The notes under the pieces: generated by a model | What the model was told of the DNA's origin: nothing | Databases searched by the model: none | The model's input: the letters and a program-made list of their open reading frames with translations, nothing else | Source of the DNA: Methylocystis sp. | GTDB taxonomy: Bacteria > Pseudomonadota > Alphaproteobacteria > Rhizobiales > Beijerinckiaceae | Assembly: GCA_036560365.1 (NCBI GenBank) | Contig: DATBRI010000085.1 | Coordinates: forward strand, 5,300 to 69,299 | Direction: 5' to 3' | DNA length: 64,000 nt | Position numbers and translations under genes: made by a program | In this document: positions 37,036 to 42,284 of the stretch, piece after piece | Layout: each line of letters starts with the position of its first letter | Position numbering within the stretch: the first letter of the stretch is position 1

Positions 37036-37425
37036 CTAAGACCGAACAGAATCGAGCGCTTTGCAACTTAAGGCGGCCGCGATCGCGGCGCTTAACGCAA
37101 CCTTGCTAAATGGCTTTTGCACGCTGGGCGCGCCTTGGAAGGACAGTTGAAAATTTGACTGTTGATATCCGGTCGCGAAAACAAGTGGAATCTTTCGGTT
37201 CCTGACGATCTCGGCAACAGGAAAGCTCGTCACGCCGTTGAGATTAACATCCAAAATCGCGAGTCCATAGTCGGCTTCCGCCGCCAGTTGCAGCGCATCT
37301 TCAATGCACTGCGCATAACCGGCGATCTCGTATCCAAGTTCGCTCAACATTTCTTCAAGAAGAAGCCCGACCAGCCCTTCGTCCTCAACCATCAATACGC
37401 GAATCTTTCTGGCTGAGTCCGTCAT
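37036..37425 (-). CDS. single-domain response regulator (CheY-like receiver)
   Basis: 129-aa ORF with 'IRVLMVEDEGLVG', the phospho-acceptor in 'LAILDVNL', and 'PLVFATGY'. Confidence 0.85.
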   Translation of the reverse strand: MTDSARKIRVLMVEDEGLVGLLLEEMLSELGYEIAGYAQCIEDALQLAAEADYGLAILDVNLNGVTSFPVAEIVRNRKIPLVFATGYQQSNFQLSFQGAPSVQKPFSKVALSAAIAAALSCKALDSVRS

Positions 37426-37428
37426 CTC

Positions 37429-38799
37429 TCACTCGAAGTCGATAGGGGCGCTAATTGCGCAGGTAACGCCATCGGGAGAAAAGTCGAGGGATATCGTTCC
37501 CTTTAAGTCGCTGGCAAGCGATCGCTCAAGCAGCTTCGAGCCGAACCCGCGATGCGCCGGCCGTCCGACCAAGGGTCCGCCTGTTTCTTTCCAAATCAAG
37601 CTTAACCGCGGCGCGCCGTTTTCACGTTCGAGGCTCCAGCAAACGTTCACCTGACCCTCACTGCTCGATAGAGCTCCGTATTTGAGCGCATTGGTGCAGA
37701 GTTCATGCAATCCCATAGCGAGCGCTAAGGCCGCTTTAGGCCTGAGTTTCAGATCGGGACCTTCGATGCTGAATCGATCGGCCGCCCCATGAAGCTGCGC
37801 CGCCTTGACCACGATCTCTCTGAGATCCGCAGTCCGCCAGCTGCCGCGCGTCAAAACGTCATGCGCCGCCGAAAGCGCGCAGAGTCTGTTCTCGAACGCC
37901 TCGACTTTCGCTTCATCGACGCCGGCGCCTCGAAATGTCTGCGACGCGAGCGACTGCACGATGGTCAGCGTGTTCTTCACCCTGTGGTCGAGTTCATTGA
38001 TCAGCGTTTCTTTATGCTGTTCAGCTCTCTTCCGCTCTGAAATATCGACCGCCCAACAGCCCGCGGTTGTGATGTCGTTTGAGGCGTCCCGCACAGGGAA
38101 AAACCCCGCCAACCAGTGCTGGTCGCCGGCGTTGAAGCCCTCGGAAAGCTCCAAATTTTGCAAGGAAGCTCCAGTTGAGAAAATCTCGCCGAGGGAATTT
38201 TCGAGAGAACTGGCGCTGTTTGGAAAGAGTTCCTTGATTGTGCGGCCGATGTGGCCCTTCGCCGAGAGCGCGCTGATGCCGGCGAACTCGTTGTTGATCC
38301 GCGTGCAGCGACCCGCCTTGTCGAAAAACGCAAGCCCGATCGGTGCGCTAGAGAGCAGCGCTTCCAACTCGAGGGTTCGAGCGAGGAGGCGTTCGTTCGC
38401 GACGCGCAGCTGATCCTCGGCGCTTTTTGCGCGTAACAAGGCCCTGACCGTTGCGACCAGCACCGGCGCTTCCGCTGGCTCCACCAAATATGCGTCGGCG
38501 CCCGCGTCAAGCGCCGTCACCTTGGCGTCAGCGCCGATAAACGTCGCCGAGGTCTGCAGCACCATGATGTCGGGCCGCTTTCGTTTGATCTCTCGACAAA
38601 CTTCCGTGCCCAGAATGTCAGGCAGCATCGTATCGAGAACGACGAGGTCCGTCGGGCGCGAAGCGACGAAGGCGAGCGTCTCCTCGCCGCCGCTCGTTTC
38701 ACTGACTGACCAGCCCGCCTTTTGCAGCGCCCGCACCTTGGCGTAGCGCGCCTCGGCAATGTCGTCGACGACCAGCAGACGGGCGCTCTCAACATTCAT
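37429..38799 (-). CDS. receiver-PAS-HWE/HisKA_2 histidine kinase
   Basis: Starts at 'MNVESARLLVVDD' (M107 of ORF 37429..39117), overlapping the upstream stop (ATGA). Receiver Asp is in 'LVVLDTMLPD'. A PAS-like middle domain follows. The H-box 'ELDHRVKNTLTIVQSL' and 'HELCTNALKYGA' are typical of HWE/HisKA_2 kinases. Confidence 0.8.
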   Translation of the reverse strand: MNVESARLLVVDDIAEARYAKVRALQKAGWSVSETSGGEETLAFVASRPTDLVVLDTMLPDILGTEVCREIKRKRPDIMVLQTSATFIGADAKVTALDAGADAYLVEPAEAPVLVATVRALLRAKSAEDQLRVANERLLARTLELEALLSSAPIGLAFFDKAGRCTRINNEFAGISALSAKGHIGRTIKELFPNSASSLENSLGEIFSTGASLQNLELSEGFNAGDQHWLAGFFPVRDASNDITTAGCWAVDISERKRAEQHKETLINELDHRVKNTLTIVQSLASQTFRGAGVDEAKVEAFENRLCALSAAHDVLTRGSWRTADLREIVVKAAQLHGAADRFSIEGPDLKLRPKAALALAMGLHELCTNALKYGALSSSEGQVNVCWSLERENGAPRLSLIWKETGGPLVGRPAHRGFGSKLLERSLASDLKGTISLDFSPDGVTCAISAPIDFE

Positions 38800-40208
38800 G
38801 GCTGGGCTCCCGCGCCCAGCGCCTCGGCCACGATTGGGGCGAGCGACTCTTTCGACAGCCCGGCTTTTGCAATGACTTGCTTGGCGCACCCGAGGCGTCC
38901 GAGATCCTGCTCGTTTAAAGCTGTCGCGGTGACGACGACGATCGGGACCTGCGCTGTTTTTGGGTTGTCCGTCAGCCGGTCGAGCACATCGAAGCCGCTG
39001 ATGCCTGGTAATTTGAGGTCGAGCAACACCAGATCCGGGGGCTGTTTGGCGGCGCTCTCCAGCCCCGCTTCGCCCGTCGCGGCTTCGCTGAGAACGTAGG
39101 GCTCGTCCGCGAGACACCTACGAATGATATAGCGCGAGGCCTCGTCGTCGTCGATCAGAAGGACGCGCTTTACGTCTGTCTCGTCGATCAATTGATGCAG
39201 CTTTGCGAGGAGCCAAGCGCGTTCGATGGGCTTTATTCCGTAGCCGTCAGCGCCAAGCCGCGCTGCTTTCGCGCGGTCCTCAATCGTTGAGACGACAATA
39301 ACGGGAATCTCCTGCGACTCCGGCGCGCTCTTGAGATCGGCCAGCAGCGCCCAAGTGTCTGCGCCTTCGAGCAAGAGATCGAGAATAATCGCGCGCGGTT
39401 TGACGTCCTGGATTTTCCGCCGCGCCTCCTTCAAGGTTCGCGCGGCGACGAGCCTGTATGGAGAGTGGCGCAGAGTGGCTTCATAGACGATCATATCTGC
39501 GGGGTCGTCTTCGATCGCAAGAACTGGAATGCGCGCATCTTCCGGCGGCGGCTCGGTTGAAGGCTCGGCAGGGTCTGTCGCGGAGCCAGCGTAGGCGGCC
39601 GGCAGCGTAAAGGAGAAGGTCGATCCCTTGCCCACCGCGCTGTCGACGTAGATATCGCCGCCCAAAAGTTTGCACAGCCGTTTCGACAAGGGGAGCCCCA
39701 GTCCCGTGCCCCTCACCTTGCGTTGTATCGGGCTATCGAGTTGTGAGAACTCCTGAAAAATGAGCTCATGATGCTCTGAGGCGATGCCAATGCCGTCGTC
39801 CTTAACCGTGAATGTGAAACACCCATCGGATAGCGATGCGCTGACGCGAATTTCCCCTGCCTCAGTGAATTTCAGCGCATTCGAAATCAGATTACGCAGC
39901 ACCTGTGAAATCTTGGCCTCATCGCTATACATCTCCGGCAGCGACGATGCGTCCTCGAAGACGAGGTTGACCTTGTCTCCAACGAGCAGCGGCCGGAGCA
40001 TGCCGCGCAAGGCGCCGAAGAGATCGCCGATCCGGAATTCGACGGGCCTGATCTCGATCCTGCCGGCTTCGACTTTCGCGAGATCGAGAAGGTCATTGAC
40101 GAGTTCGGTCAGGCTCTCCGCCGATTTTCGGATGAACGAGACTTGGCGCTCCTGCTCAGGCATGAGCTCGCCGTCGCAGCGATCGAGCAGCAGGTGGGTG
40201 AGCGCCAA
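38796..40208 (-). CDS. hybrid kinase core (DHp remnant without the phospho-acceptor His, HATPase_c) plus two receiver domains; 5' end disrupted
   Basis: The 470-aa ORF can only start at a TTG inside the H-box remnant ('..RTPLNSI-L-ALTHLLLD'). N-box 'NLISNALKFT', G-boxes 'DDGIGI' and 'GTGLGLPL'. The receivers are 'IPVLAIEDD...IILDLLL' and 'KRVLLIDDD...LVLLDLKLPG'. Confidence 0.7.
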   Translation of the reverse strand: MALTHLLLDRCDGELMPEQERQVSFIRKSAESLTELVNDLLDLAKVEAGRIEIRPVEFRIGDLFGALRGMLRPLLVGDKVNLVFEDASSLPEMYSDEAKISQVLRNLISNALKFTEAGEIRVSASLSDGCFTFTVKDDGIGIASEHHELIFQEFSQLDSPIQRKVRGTGLGLPLSKRLCKLLGGDIYVDSAVGKGSTFSFTLPAAYAGSATDPAEPSTEPPPEDARIPVLAIEDDPADMIVYEATLRHSPYRLVAARTLKEARRKIQDVKPRAIILDLLLEGADTWALLADLKSAPESQEIPVIVVSTIEDRAKAARLGADGYGIKPIERAWLLAKLHQLIDETDVKRVLLIDDDEASRYIIRRCLADEPYVLSEAATGEAGLESAAKQPPDLVLLDLKLPGISGFDVLDRLTDNPKTAQVPIVVVTATALNEQDLGRLGCAKQVIAKAGLSKESLAPIVAEALGAGAQP

Positions 40209-40356
40209 GATCGAGTTGAGCGGCGTCCGCGAGTTCAGTGGCGACGATGGCTATTTTGCCGACCGCTTCCTCCGGAAAATCAAATGACGACGCCAATTGC
40301 GTCGCCGCCCTGCGAACTTCCGCGACTCGCGAAGGATCATCCACCGGCAACAGCAT
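40156..40356 (-). pseudogene. 5' remnant of an RsbT/RsbW-like ATPase-domain gene, out of frame with the downstream kinase core
   Basis: The ATG lies 1 nt after the rsbT-like stop. 'MLLPVDDPSRVAEVRRAATQLASSFDFPEEAVGKIAIVATEL' parallels the N-terminus of the adjacent RsbT-like protein up to the N-box. It then runs into an Arg/Ala-rich out-of-frame tail and stops at 40156. Confidence 0.55.
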
Positions 40357-40357
40357 G

Positions 40358-40762
40358 TCACTTCCAACGAATGAGTGAGACGCGCGTTCCATCGCCCGGC
40401 CGAGATTCGATCTCGAACTCATTGACCAGCCGCTTGGCGCCGCCCAAACCCAGCCCAAGTCCCCCGCCCGTCGTGAAGTGATCGCGCATCGCCTGTTCAA
40501 TGTCCGCGATGCCGGGACCCTCGTCTGAAAACGTCAATCGCAACCCTCGGCGCGCGCCGTCGCGAAGGAGCTCCAAAAGCAGCTCGCCGCCTCCGCCATA
40601 CTCGAAGGTGTTTCGCGCGATTTCGCTCGCCGCGGTGATGATTTTGGTCTGATCGATAAGACTCATGCCCATCGCGTTAGCTTGGAAGCGCACTTTCTGC
40701 CGCACGCGAACGATGTCTTCCGAGCTTCGAATCGGAACGGTATCAATCGTCTCCATCAGCAT
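40358..40762 (-). CDS. RsbT-like anti-sigma regulatory factor (serine kinase, HATPase_c_2)
   Basis: 134-aa ORF with 'IITAASEIARNTFEYGGGGELLLE', 'FSDEGPGI' and 'GGGLGLGLGGAKRLVNEFEI'. It follows two STAS genes. Confidence 0.8.
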   Translation of the reverse strand: MLMETIDTVPIRSSEDIVRVRQKVRFQANAMGMSLIDQTKIITAASEIARNTFEYGGGGELLLELLRDGARRGLRLTFSDEGPGIADIEQAMRDHFTTGGGLGLGLGGAKRLVNEFEIESRPGDGTRVSLIRWK

Positions 40763-41072
40763 CGGTCGACTCTGACTGCTCGATCAGCCTGTTGATCGTC
40801 TCCAGGCCCTTGTCGACGTTGCGGGCGGTCTGAATGCCGCTCAGCTGTACGCCCAGTTCGACGAGGGTGATCGCGACATGCGGCCGCATCCCCACGACAA
40901 TGGTGACGGCGTCAAGCACCCTTGATGCGCTGGCTATGTTGCTAAGCATGCGGCCAATGAAGGAATCGACGATCTCGAGCGCGGAAACGTCAATCAAGAC
41001 GCCCTTGGCCCTGGTGGAAACGATCGCGTTGGTGAGATCGTCCTGCAGCGCCATGGCGAGGCGGTCATGCAT
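40743..41072 (-). CDS. RsbS-like single STAS domain protein
   Basis: 109-aa ORF with 'GVLIDVSALEIVDSFIGRML' (conserved Ser in the D-x-S context). Overlaps the rsbT-like gene by 20 nt. Confidence 0.8.
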   Translation of the reverse strand: MHDRLAMALQDDLTNAIVSTRAKGVLIDVSALEIVDSFIGRMLSNIASASRVLDAVTIVVGMRPHVAITLVELGVQLSGIQTARNVDKGLETINRLIEQSESTDADGDD

Positions 41073-41134
41073 GTCGATGTGAATTGACGAGAAGGCACTT
41101 GCCGACTTTGAGGATCGGGATCTTGTCCACCGCG

Positions 41135-41995
41135 TCAGCCTCGCGCCGCTACGCGTTCCACCTTCTGACCCGTCTTTTTCAATGCCATGGAGAGGGCATC
41201 GGCCATCGTCGCTTTAGAGACCACTTGAAGATCGAGTCCCAGATGAACGATCGTCTGGGCGATCTGCGGACGGATGCCGCTGATGATGCAATCTGCCCCC
41301 ATGAGCCGCGCCGCCGCCACCGTCTTGATCAAATGCTGCGCGACCAACGTATCGACGGCCGGCACGCCCGTGATGTCGATGATGGCGATTTCCGCCTCCG
41401 CGTCGACGATCGTTTGTAGAAGATTCTCCATCACGATCTGCGTCCGTGCGCTATCGAGCGTGCCTATGAGCGGCAGCGCGAGAATCTTGTCCCAAAGCTG
41501 GATGACCGGAGTCGACAGCTCCAACAATTCGTCCTGTTGACGCTTGATGAGCTCTTCGCGGCTCTTCTGATAAACCTCGGTGGTGAATAAGCCGAGACGA
41601 TCGAGAAGCACGCCCGAGGCGATCACCACGTCTGTCAGGTTCTCTTCGCCGGCCAGCATTTTCCGCAGCAGATCGAACAGCGGCTCTTTCAGCGAGAACA
41701 CAAATAGCGCAGTCTCGACGGGACTGTATCCACGCAGCGCACGGGCCGTCGAAATTTCTTCGAGCACCTCGCGCGCGTCTTGCCACTGTTGGCCGGTGAT
41801 ATCTTCTCCGGCGCCATTTTTAAGAGCGCTGCGTAACTCTTTCAGGAATCGCCCGCAGGCGTCCTTCAAATCCTTATCTGACGTCTGACCGCTGCGCGTG
41901 GCGCCCGCCGCGGTCAGCGTGGCGATCCATCGGCCAAGCAGGTCCTTTTCGCTCTGTTCGATAGCGTTGGCGAGCGCGTCAAAGTTTGCCGGCAT
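41135..41995 (-). CDS. RsbR-like stressosome sensor (N-terminal non-haem globin-like domain + STAS)
   Basis: 286-aa ORF. The C-terminal STAS is 'LSTPVIQLWDKILALPLIGTLDSARTQ...IIDITGVPAVDTLVAQHL'. The N-terminal helical domain is about 150 aa. Confidence 0.8.
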   Translation of the reverse strand: MPANFDALANAIEQSEKDLLGRWIATLTAAGATRSGQTSDKDLKDACGRFLKELRSALKNGAGEDITGQQWQDAREVLEEISTARALRGYSPVETALFVFSLKEPLFDLLRKMLAGEENLTDVVIASGVLLDRLGLFTTEVYQKSREELIKRQQDELLELSTPVIQLWDKILALPLIGTLDSARTQIVMENLLQTIVDAEAEIAIIDITGVPAVDTLVAQHLIKTVAAARLMGADCIISGIRPQIAQTIVHLGLDLQVVSKATMADALSMALKKTGQKVERVAARG

Positions 41996-42284
41996 GACTC
42001 ATTCCTTGAATGACCCGAACAACTGGCTAATAACGCTTCGATAAAGCTTCCCATAAATAGCCCACTCTGTAGCTTGAGGCAAACCATGTGGATGGGCCGT
42101 ATGCGGGCGACACAGGTGGATAAGCGCGTGGAAAGGGTAGCGCCGAATTCCGAGAATTCAATAATTTAGCGGCGCATATTAGAGGGTTGCTTAAATTTGA
42201 TAGTATGTTGCACCTTATTTGATCTCGGCGCGCATTTCATGCGCCGATCAGCGGTAAGCTAGAACGCCTGATCCAATGTAAAAG

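Follow-up and report, generated by a model that had tools for sequence, protein, structure and literature searches.

Scar of a probable ~1.55-kb deletion across a phosphatase gene and a hybrid kinase gene in a stressosome-type operon of Methylocystis sp.

A junction between two gene fragments was studied in a 64-kb stretch of Methylocystis sp. DNA (contig DATBRI010000085.1; the whole stretch is termed the window, and all feature positions are given in its numbering on the minus strand). At this site the first codons of a gene encoding an RsbT-like ATPase run, out of frame, into the H-box of a hybrid histidine kinase. The data indicate that the feature is most probably the scar of a real and evolutionarily recent deletion of ~1.55 kb in the output part of a stressosome-type operon, with both affected genes rendered null. 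The event is of a known kind in a known kind of operon, and its result is an ordinary deletion pseudogene and not a new type of protein.

Re-reading of the junction gave the same coordinates and frames as an initial annotation made from the letters of the DNA. A 66-amino acid (aa) open reading frame (ORF) begins at the natural start of the phosphatase gene, which follows directly on the rsbT stop (TGAcATG). In the +1-shifted frame the DNA reads ...AK, a stop and then PSSPLNSRTPLNSILALTHLLLD..., leading into a 470-aa ORF that extends from TTG 40208 to a stop at 38796. This kinase frame carries a TAG at 40253-40251, and ATG, GTG and TTG are all absent before 40208; the annotation had already noted the lack of ATG and GTG. 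Removal of the G at 40230 does give GAA CTC CGG ACG, translated as ...TELRTPLNSIL. The window reads ...GAA CTC GCG GAC GCC... across the junction, and the Arg codon CGG at 40229-40227 is a hybrid, with CG contributed by the left side and G by the right side.

The origin of this arrangement was established by alignment with five Methylocystis-type loci. Three of these, from M. rosea SV97 (L002), Methylocystis sp. H62 (L001) and Methylocystis sp. L43 (L006), came from a genome scan and show 91-92% protein identity, while two Logan loci (L021 and L022) were reached via the nearest protein, P0001. All five are ~90% identical to the window at the nucleotide level and all carry an intact cassette, the first seven genes of which are in identical order in every locus: rsbR (286 aa); rsbS (129 aa); rsbT (134-141 aa); a phosphatase of 328 aa with HATPase_c_2 and SpoIIE/PP2C domains and the N-terminus MLLPVDDPSRVAEVRRAATQLA...; a kinase of 706-709 aa with the architecture HATPase_c_2-HisKA-HATPase_c-REC-REC; a REC-PAS-HWE kinase of 456 aa; and a receiver consisting of a single REC domain. 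In blastn comparisons, window positions 42014 to 40228 and 40228 to about 37000 matched two separated blocks in 5/5 intact loci, the blocks being spaced by 1553 bp in L002, L006, L021 and L022 and by 1552 bp in L001.

The left breakpoint falls after codon 43 of the phosphatase gene, in the N-box of its ATPase domain (...ACT GAA CTC GCG / ACC AAC, or T-E-L-A / T-N; the intact sequence is ...GAACTCGCGACCAAC...). The right breakpoint falls within the Arg codon of the kinase H-box (...CAC GAG TTC AG / G ACG CCG, or H-E-F-R-T-P), which reads CAC GAG TTC AGG (HEF R) in all five relatives. The phosphatase gene has thereby lost residues 44-328 (285 codons), so that the PP2C domain is missing entirely and the ATPase domain from residue 44 onward. 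In the kinase gene, residues 1-229 (P0001 numbering) are gone, and with them its RsbT-like domain, coiled coil and acceptor His227. A deletion between the N-box of an upstream ATPase and a downstream H-box had been proposed in the initial annotation, and the orthologous loci bear this out; other parts of that proposal needed revision. The left-hand gene had been described as a second RsbT-like ATPase gene, and its start is indeed that of an RsbT-like HATPase_c_2 domain, but the gene as a whole encodes a 328-aa fusion of this ATPase domain to a PP2C/SpoIIE phosphatase. Likewise, the hybrid kinase is cut in its H-box as described, but the loss is larger, since the ~706-aa kinase is also without its RsbT-like domain and coiled coil. 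The suggested microhomology of GAACTC did not hold: the relatives have GAGTTC in the H-box, and the window retains the following GCG (Ala) codon, which places the crossover after GAACTC and leaves a single G shared between the two sides.

The missing length is 3n+2 (3n+1 relative to L001) and thus not a multiple of three. In L021 the phosphatase and kinase genes share one frame, and loss of 3n+2 bp from two genes in the same frame would leave the kinase remnant at +1, exactly as observed; the frame offset is therefore accounted for by the length of the deletion and not by a base-calling error. Translocation of the missing DNA within the window was ruled out, since the deleted segment was found nowhere else in the 64 kb. 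The junction is without a mobile element or repeat. As the breakpoints share only 1 nucleotide (nt), the natural inference from the sequence is that illegitimate recombination, of the end-joining or slippage type, made the deletion. Homologous recombination between paralogous HATPase_c_2 domains was ruled out, the breakpoints being nonhomologous (an N-box and a HisKA H-box). Bacterial pseudogenes formed by deletion arise from illegitimate recombination in which microhomology is limited to a few nt or is absent, and the window resembles these in having one deletion across two adjacent genes, 1 nt shared and a length that is not 3n. It is unusual only in that both breakpoints lie, by coincidence, in signature motifs (N-box and H-box), and it is this that makes the scar resemble a designed fusion. 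Programmed ribosomal frameshifting was also considered as a source of the two-frame arrangement and rejected; the relatives have two separate in-frame genes with no such junction, and the arrangement is confined to this lineage.

An artefact of assembly or sequencing, either a mis-joined intact operon or a single-base error behind the frame offset, is a very unlikely origin for the junction, even though the window comes from a metagenome contig and the assemblies that carry the junction may rest on the same reads. The window lies within a 115-kb contig of JGI metagenome 3300035072 (Ga0373476_0000031; L019) and is 100% identical to it. Identical junctions are present in two further assemblies. 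A 2.2-kb Logan contig of SRR11673296 shows 100% identity to the window along 2225 bp spanning the junction, and on a 157-kb (157,025-bp) contig an NCBI-sourced protein of 480 aa, beginning MNSRTPLNSIL, matches the window translated from CTG 40238 through the junction at 479/479 residues after the start codon. An exact-match scan of metagenome contigs with the 27-nt junction found no further carrier. The difference from the relatives is moreover 1552/1553 bp and not one base, and the breakpoints, with a single nt in common, do not lie in repeats, leaving an assembler without reason to join them if spanning reads were lacking. Finally, over ~6 kb of flanking genes compared with L006, the only indels were compensated, multiples of three or intergenic, which argues that the assembly is not prone to indel errors. 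The sequencing frameshift offered as an alternative in the initial annotation is refuted by the length of the missing DNA and by the same junction in two other assemblies.

Formally, an indel is symmetrical, and the relatives could instead have gained 1.55 kb by insertion, with the short state of the window being ancestral. That symmetry is all that speaks for such a gain, which is extremely improbable and is refuted by the domain truncations: both remnants carry truncated domains (HATPase_c_2 positions 4-39 of 127 and HisKA positions 22-66 of 66). In addition, the two pieces in the window are out of frame with each other, and the long forms and their gene order are conserved across phyla. An Acidobacteriota metagenome-assembled genome (MAG; L003) has the first five genes in the same order at ~49% identity by Pfam-supported assignment, and a second MAG (L007, Candidatus Acidiferrales) has the same order as judged by ORF sizes alone. 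When a conceptual fusion of both readings was used as the query, 108 of the best 120 homologues listed had the architecture HATPase_c_2-HisKA-HATPase_c-REC-REC, most at ~700-730 aa. The gene order across phyla and the architecture of the listed homologues together identify the long two-gene state as ancestral and widespread. A conserved pair consisting of a separate 66-aa ORF and a TTG-initiated kinase, the other arrangement contemplated in the annotation, was not what the relatives contain; they have intact genes of 328 and 706-709 codons instead.

The domain content of the two remnants agrees with their truncation. The 66-aa ORF matched HATPase_c_2 in Pfam at profile positions 4-39 of 127 with 17.8 bits, under the family cut-off of 27.4, and with 43 native residues and no N-box Asn it is not a complete GHKL protein of the RsbT/RsbW type. 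The fragment is orthologous to a real HATPase_c_2 protein: its 43 native residues share 93% identity with the first 43 of the 328-aa protein of M. rosea SV97 (tblastn E = 7e-19; L002 8300-8428), which clears the cut-offs for HATPase_c_2 (40.4 bits) and SpoIIE (41.8 bits). When the 43-residue fragment was compared with the neighbouring RsbT by BLASTP, the match (E = 0.47) was not significant alone, while the full-length 328-aa orthologue aligned with RsbT at 36.8% identity over 95 aa (E = 4e-7); the paralogy of the phosphatase N-terminus with RsbT is thus shown by the full-length orthologue and not by the fragment. With the 328-aa orthologue as a tblastn query, only residues 1-43 matched at this locus. 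The other match in the window was the paralogous rsbT (residues 34-127), and the PP2C part matched nothing.

The kinase frame shows 91-92% identity to the 706-709-aa orthologues over their C-terminal two thirds, and its 477 codons encode the distal dimerization and histidine phosphotransfer (DHp) domain, the catalytic and ATP-binding (CA) domain and two receivers. The Pfam match of the 470-aa ORF to HisKA covers profile positions 22-66 of 66 only, at 29.4 bits, compared with positions 2-66 and 66.3 bits in an intact orthologue, so that half of DHp helix 1 is gone and the DHp domain is incomplete. The CA domain is present as a full HATPase_c match (1.3e-29), with the N, G1, F and G2 boxes legible as RNLISNALKFT, DDGIGI, FQEFSQ and GTGLGL. 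Two REC domains are present as two stretches of Response_reg (1.5e-31), and both receiver pockets can be read (EDD...ILDLLL...VVST...IKP and DDD...LLDLKLP...VVVT...IAK). An H-box with an acceptor His is lacking, because the kinase frame begins with R-T-P-L-N and the His-Glu-Phe codons lay in the deleted DNA, and the initial annotation was right that the kinase core has no canonical acceptor. In an alignment of six homologues the H-box reads M-[ST]-H-E-F-R-T-P-L-N-S-I, with H-E-F-R-T-P-L-N and every residue from the Arg onward invariant; the only His nearby in the remnant (THLLLD) is not conserved in the family.

The consequences of the deletion would be as follows. Translation from the phosphatase start would yield a 66-aa nonsense peptide, the kinase remnant would be left with no proper start or ribosome-binding site and no autophosphorylation, and with both genes null the stressosome would lose its feedback phosphatase and its presumed output kinase. 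The state of the kinase remnant was examined in codon alignments of the window and three relatives. Its pairwise ratios of nonsynonymous to synonymous substitution rates (dN/dS) were 0.12-0.16, compared with 0.09-0.18 among the intact orthologues themselves. Changes unique to the window lineage amounted to 28 synonymous and nine nonsynonymous, a ratio of 0.32, and the same ratio was 0.23-0.50 in the three intact lineages. The remnant has no stops and no uncompensated indels across 1.4 kb. Undecayed in this way, it is either a recent pseudogene or a remnant that is still constrained, and the data do not separate the two. If the remnant is neutral, then on a rough estimate, which assumes a background omega of ~0.1 and a Poisson upper bound on the nine changes, the deletion would occupy at most about 10-15% of the terminal branch.

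A pseudokinase or receiver scaffold, or a core phosphorylated in trans, had been raised in the initial annotation, and the data neither support nor exclude it. A re-purposed remnant is conceivable: a His-less CA-REC-REC protein, translated from CTG 40238, TTG 40208 or ATG 40163, would then serve the downstream REC-PAS-HWE kinase, for instance, as a phosphate sink or receiver scaffold and uncouple the two-component branch from the stressosome. The intact 1.4-kb ORF, its legible N, G1, F and G2 motifs and receiver Asp pockets, and a window-specific ratio of 0.32 that is not above that of the intact orthologues are all compatible with this. The start of the 66-aa ORF also retains its native surroundings (GGAAGTGACATG) and its coupling to the rsbT stop, and ATG 40163 lies 2 nt before the TGA of that ORF (ATGCCTGA), an arrangement that makes reinitiation conceivable. 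Such a role is nevertheless unlikely. No recognisable Shine-Dalgarno sequence precedes any of the three candidate starts, the Met at 40163 is not conserved in the family, and the loss of half of DHp helix 1 (HisKA from position 22) makes dimerization doubtful. A recent deletion predicts the same signature of selection, and the short form occurs in no other lineage: every complete member of the 90% cluster has 706-709 aa, save the window's own product in the three assemblies. Caulobacter DivL is a conserved protein with sensor domains and a complete DHp domain in which Tyr replaces His. Binding of receivers could persist in a DHp-CA protein that, like DivL, has no His to phosphorylate; the remnant differs from DivL in that helix 1 is cut in the H-box, the N-terminal 229 residues are gone, a proper start is missing and the form is found in one lineage. 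A recent null deletion remains the preferred reading.

A second lesion lies upstream in the same operon (Table 1). In rsbS, 2 bp are deleted between 41085 and 41084 relative to 5/5 relatives, without compensation; the site reads CTCGTCAC(A/G)AT(T/C)CA in the relatives and CTCGTCA--ATTCA in the window. The gene is frameshifted after codon 15, and where the relatives' protein reads VDKIPILKVGKCLLVTI(H/Q)IDMHD..., the frame of the window from the conserved GTG ends after 21 aa. The lost N-terminus aligns with residues 7-24 of Bacillus subtilis RsbS (6jhk) and from residue 3 onward with the RsbS chain of 6qcm; it thus belongs to the conserved RsbS domain and cannot be put down to annotation. Between 42014 and 37045, no coding indel other than this one and the large deletion is uncompensated. 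In the core of the stressosome, RsbR and RsbT are intact (dN/dS 0.15-0.16 for rsbR and about 0.1 for rsbT), and the DSF motif is present in rsbS, though in a 109-aa ORF without residues 1-20. Each of the two lesions has an out-of-frame reading that terminates at a TGA, 2 nt beyond an in-frame ATG of the downstream remnant (ATGCCTGA, 40156-40163; ATGCATGA, 41065-41072); this twin arrangement may permit termination-reinitiation, or may be coincidence. A RefSeq RsbS of 109 aa (WP_210330624.1; P0138), four residues different from that of the window, is labelled MULTISPECIES for unclassified Methylocystis, while the other genomes have 129 aa. Either a differing choice of start site or a truncated rsbS shared by a wider clade would explain this entry, and if the truncation is clade-wide then the rsbS lesion is older than the large deletion.

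Table 1. Features of the deletion scar and the surrounding operon, in window numbering
Feature	Positions	Strand	Remarks
66-aa ORF	ATG 40356-40354 to TGA 40158-40156	minus	reads MLLPVDDPSRVAEVRRAATQLASSFDFPEEAVGKIAIVATEL then ADAAQLDLGAHPPAARSLRRRAHA
Retained 5' end of phosphatase gene, 43 codons (MLLPV...IAIVATELA)	40228..40356	minus	blastn left arm stops at 40228
Out-of-frame tail of 66-aa ORF (DAAQLDLGAHPPAARSLRRRAHA, then stop)	40156..40227	minus	kinase DNA in wrong frame
Deletion junction	40227..40228	minus	G 40228 is the sole base common to both breakpoints
Retained 3' part of ~706-aa kinase gene, 477 codons and stop (RTPLNSIL...GAQP)	38796..40229	minus	
rsbR, 286 aa, RsbRD_N and STAS, intact, first gene	41135..41995	minus	Pfam; orthologue of equal length
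5' end of rsbS from GTG 41130, frameshifted	41065..41130	minus	reads VDKIPILKVGKCLLVNSHRHA, then stop
Rest of rsbS, 109-aa ATG ORF without first 20 residues of 129-aa orthologues	40743..41072	minus	
rsbT, 134 aa, HATPase_c / HATPase_c_2, intact	40358..40762	minus	Pfam
REC-PAS-HWE kinase gene, 456 aa, intact, start overlaps remnant stop	37429..38799	minus	Pfam; L002 orthologue
Single-domain receiver gene, 118 aa (JGI call), last of cassette	37036..37392	minus	Pfam

Several points weigh against the conclusion that the junction is a recent deletion with both genes null. A scan of metagenome contigs for exact matches to the window-specific left flank found no near-identical intact ancestor, and no intact close relative (>98% identity) emerged from the exact-match scans. 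JGI 3300035072, SRR11673296 and the NCBI contig may all derive from one set of reads or from one culture, and a co-existing intact allele in the population is possible, the evidence consisting of assembled contigs and not reads. The kinase ORF is fully intact with strong signatures of purifying selection, which equally fits a functional truncated protein. The 2-bp deletion in rsbS was seen as DNA in the JGI contig only; the 157-kb NCBI contig carries an identical 109-aa rsbS gene call, which supports the deletion indirectly.

Modules of rsbRST(X) coupled to two-component outputs are a known class, according to Pane-Farre 2005 as cited in PMC9237108 and PMC10014275. The cassette resembles the Vibrio vulnificus module VvRsbR/S/T/X with VvD1/VvD2 (PMC9237108, PMC10014275) in having RsbR (STAS), RsbS (STAS) and RsbT (a GHKL Ser/Thr kinase) followed by a PP2C gene, with sensor-kinase and receiver genes in place of sigma-B partners, and in its compact organization with overlapping stops and starts. 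It differs from that module in several respects: RsbR of the Methylocystis/Acidobacteriota cassette has RsbRD_N and not a haem globin, the PP2C protein has an RsbT-like HATPase_c_2 domain at its N-terminus, in contrast to the single-domain PP2C RsbX, and the kinase has an RsbT-like domain at its front and two receivers at its end. The window itself is further set apart by the absence of the PP2C gene and the kinase front and by its frameshifted rsbS. Judged by position alone, in comparison with the RSTX modules of PMC9237108, the role of feedback phosphatase would fall to the deleted PP2C.

The two lesions fit an operon under loss. Deletion of the module or of the downstream kinase VvD1 changed growth and motility in V. 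vulnificus (PMC10014275), where the stressosome was reported to be a growth disadvantage in limited medium and deletion of the stressosome or the kinase is reported to be able to improve growth there (PMC10014275); losses of such operons may therefore be selected. In the Bacillus paradigm RsbS restrains RsbT (PMC9237108).

Comparison with the sigB operon suggests a possible connection between the lesions. In B. subtilis, loss of RsbS or RsbX leads to unrestrained RsbT signalling and selects downstream suppressor mutations. The lesions of the window similarly hit negative regulators (rsbS and the phosphatase in the RsbX position) together with the presumed output, although here the output of the operon is a kinase and not RsbU/sigma-B. 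By this analogy, selection may have favoured one lesion because it suppressed the other and silenced its consequences. A fuller scheme of adaptive rewiring, in which the rsbS frameshift frees RsbT, the deletion silences a harmful constitutive signal, and the remnant is reinitiated at ATG 40163 and selected as a receiver or phosphate-sink partner of the REC-PAS-HWE kinase, is distinctly unlikely.

In practical terms, the genes called at this locus, of 66 and 470 aa by JGI and, for the same remnant, of 470 and 480 aa in the Logan and NCBI assemblies, are halves of the scar and should be flagged as pseudogenes, in place of labels such as 'small ATPase-like protein' and 'response regulator/kinase'. 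The locus is also a natural knock-out, in which the stressosome operon of a Gram-negative methanotroph lineage has lost its output.

The more useful by-product of the comparison is the intact cassette, which is present across phyla, contains three RsbT-like domains and is experimentally uncharacterised. These HATPase_c_2 domains occur in succession, in RsbT and at the N-termini of the phosphatase and the kinase, over L002 7873-11413, L021 1450-4969 and L003 7831-11452, with the N, G1 and G2 boxes kept in all three domains. Along 130 aa, the N-terminal domain of the kinase shares 42% identity with RsbT (E = 1e-15). The shared domain suggests that the phosphatase and the kinase could dock on the stressosome through their RsbT-like domains. 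Neither the 328-aa nor the 706-aa protein has a specific model in NCBIfam, where generic hybrid-kinase matches fell below the cut-off.

The sixth gene encodes a REC-kinase in both phyla, with different cores, HisKA_3 and HATPase_c in the Acidobacteriota MAG (L003 11449-12708) and PAS and HWE_HK in the window (37429-38799), so that the distal part of the cassette is exchangeable. In M. rosea SV97, an inverted segment of 273 bp lies on the opposite strand ~1.9 kb upstream of rsbR (L002 4429-4700). It is 89% identical to window positions 38561-38833, at the boundary between the 3' end of the kinase gene and the 5' end of the REC-PAS-HWE kinase gene, and may be a fragment of a duplicated receiver-kinase gene.

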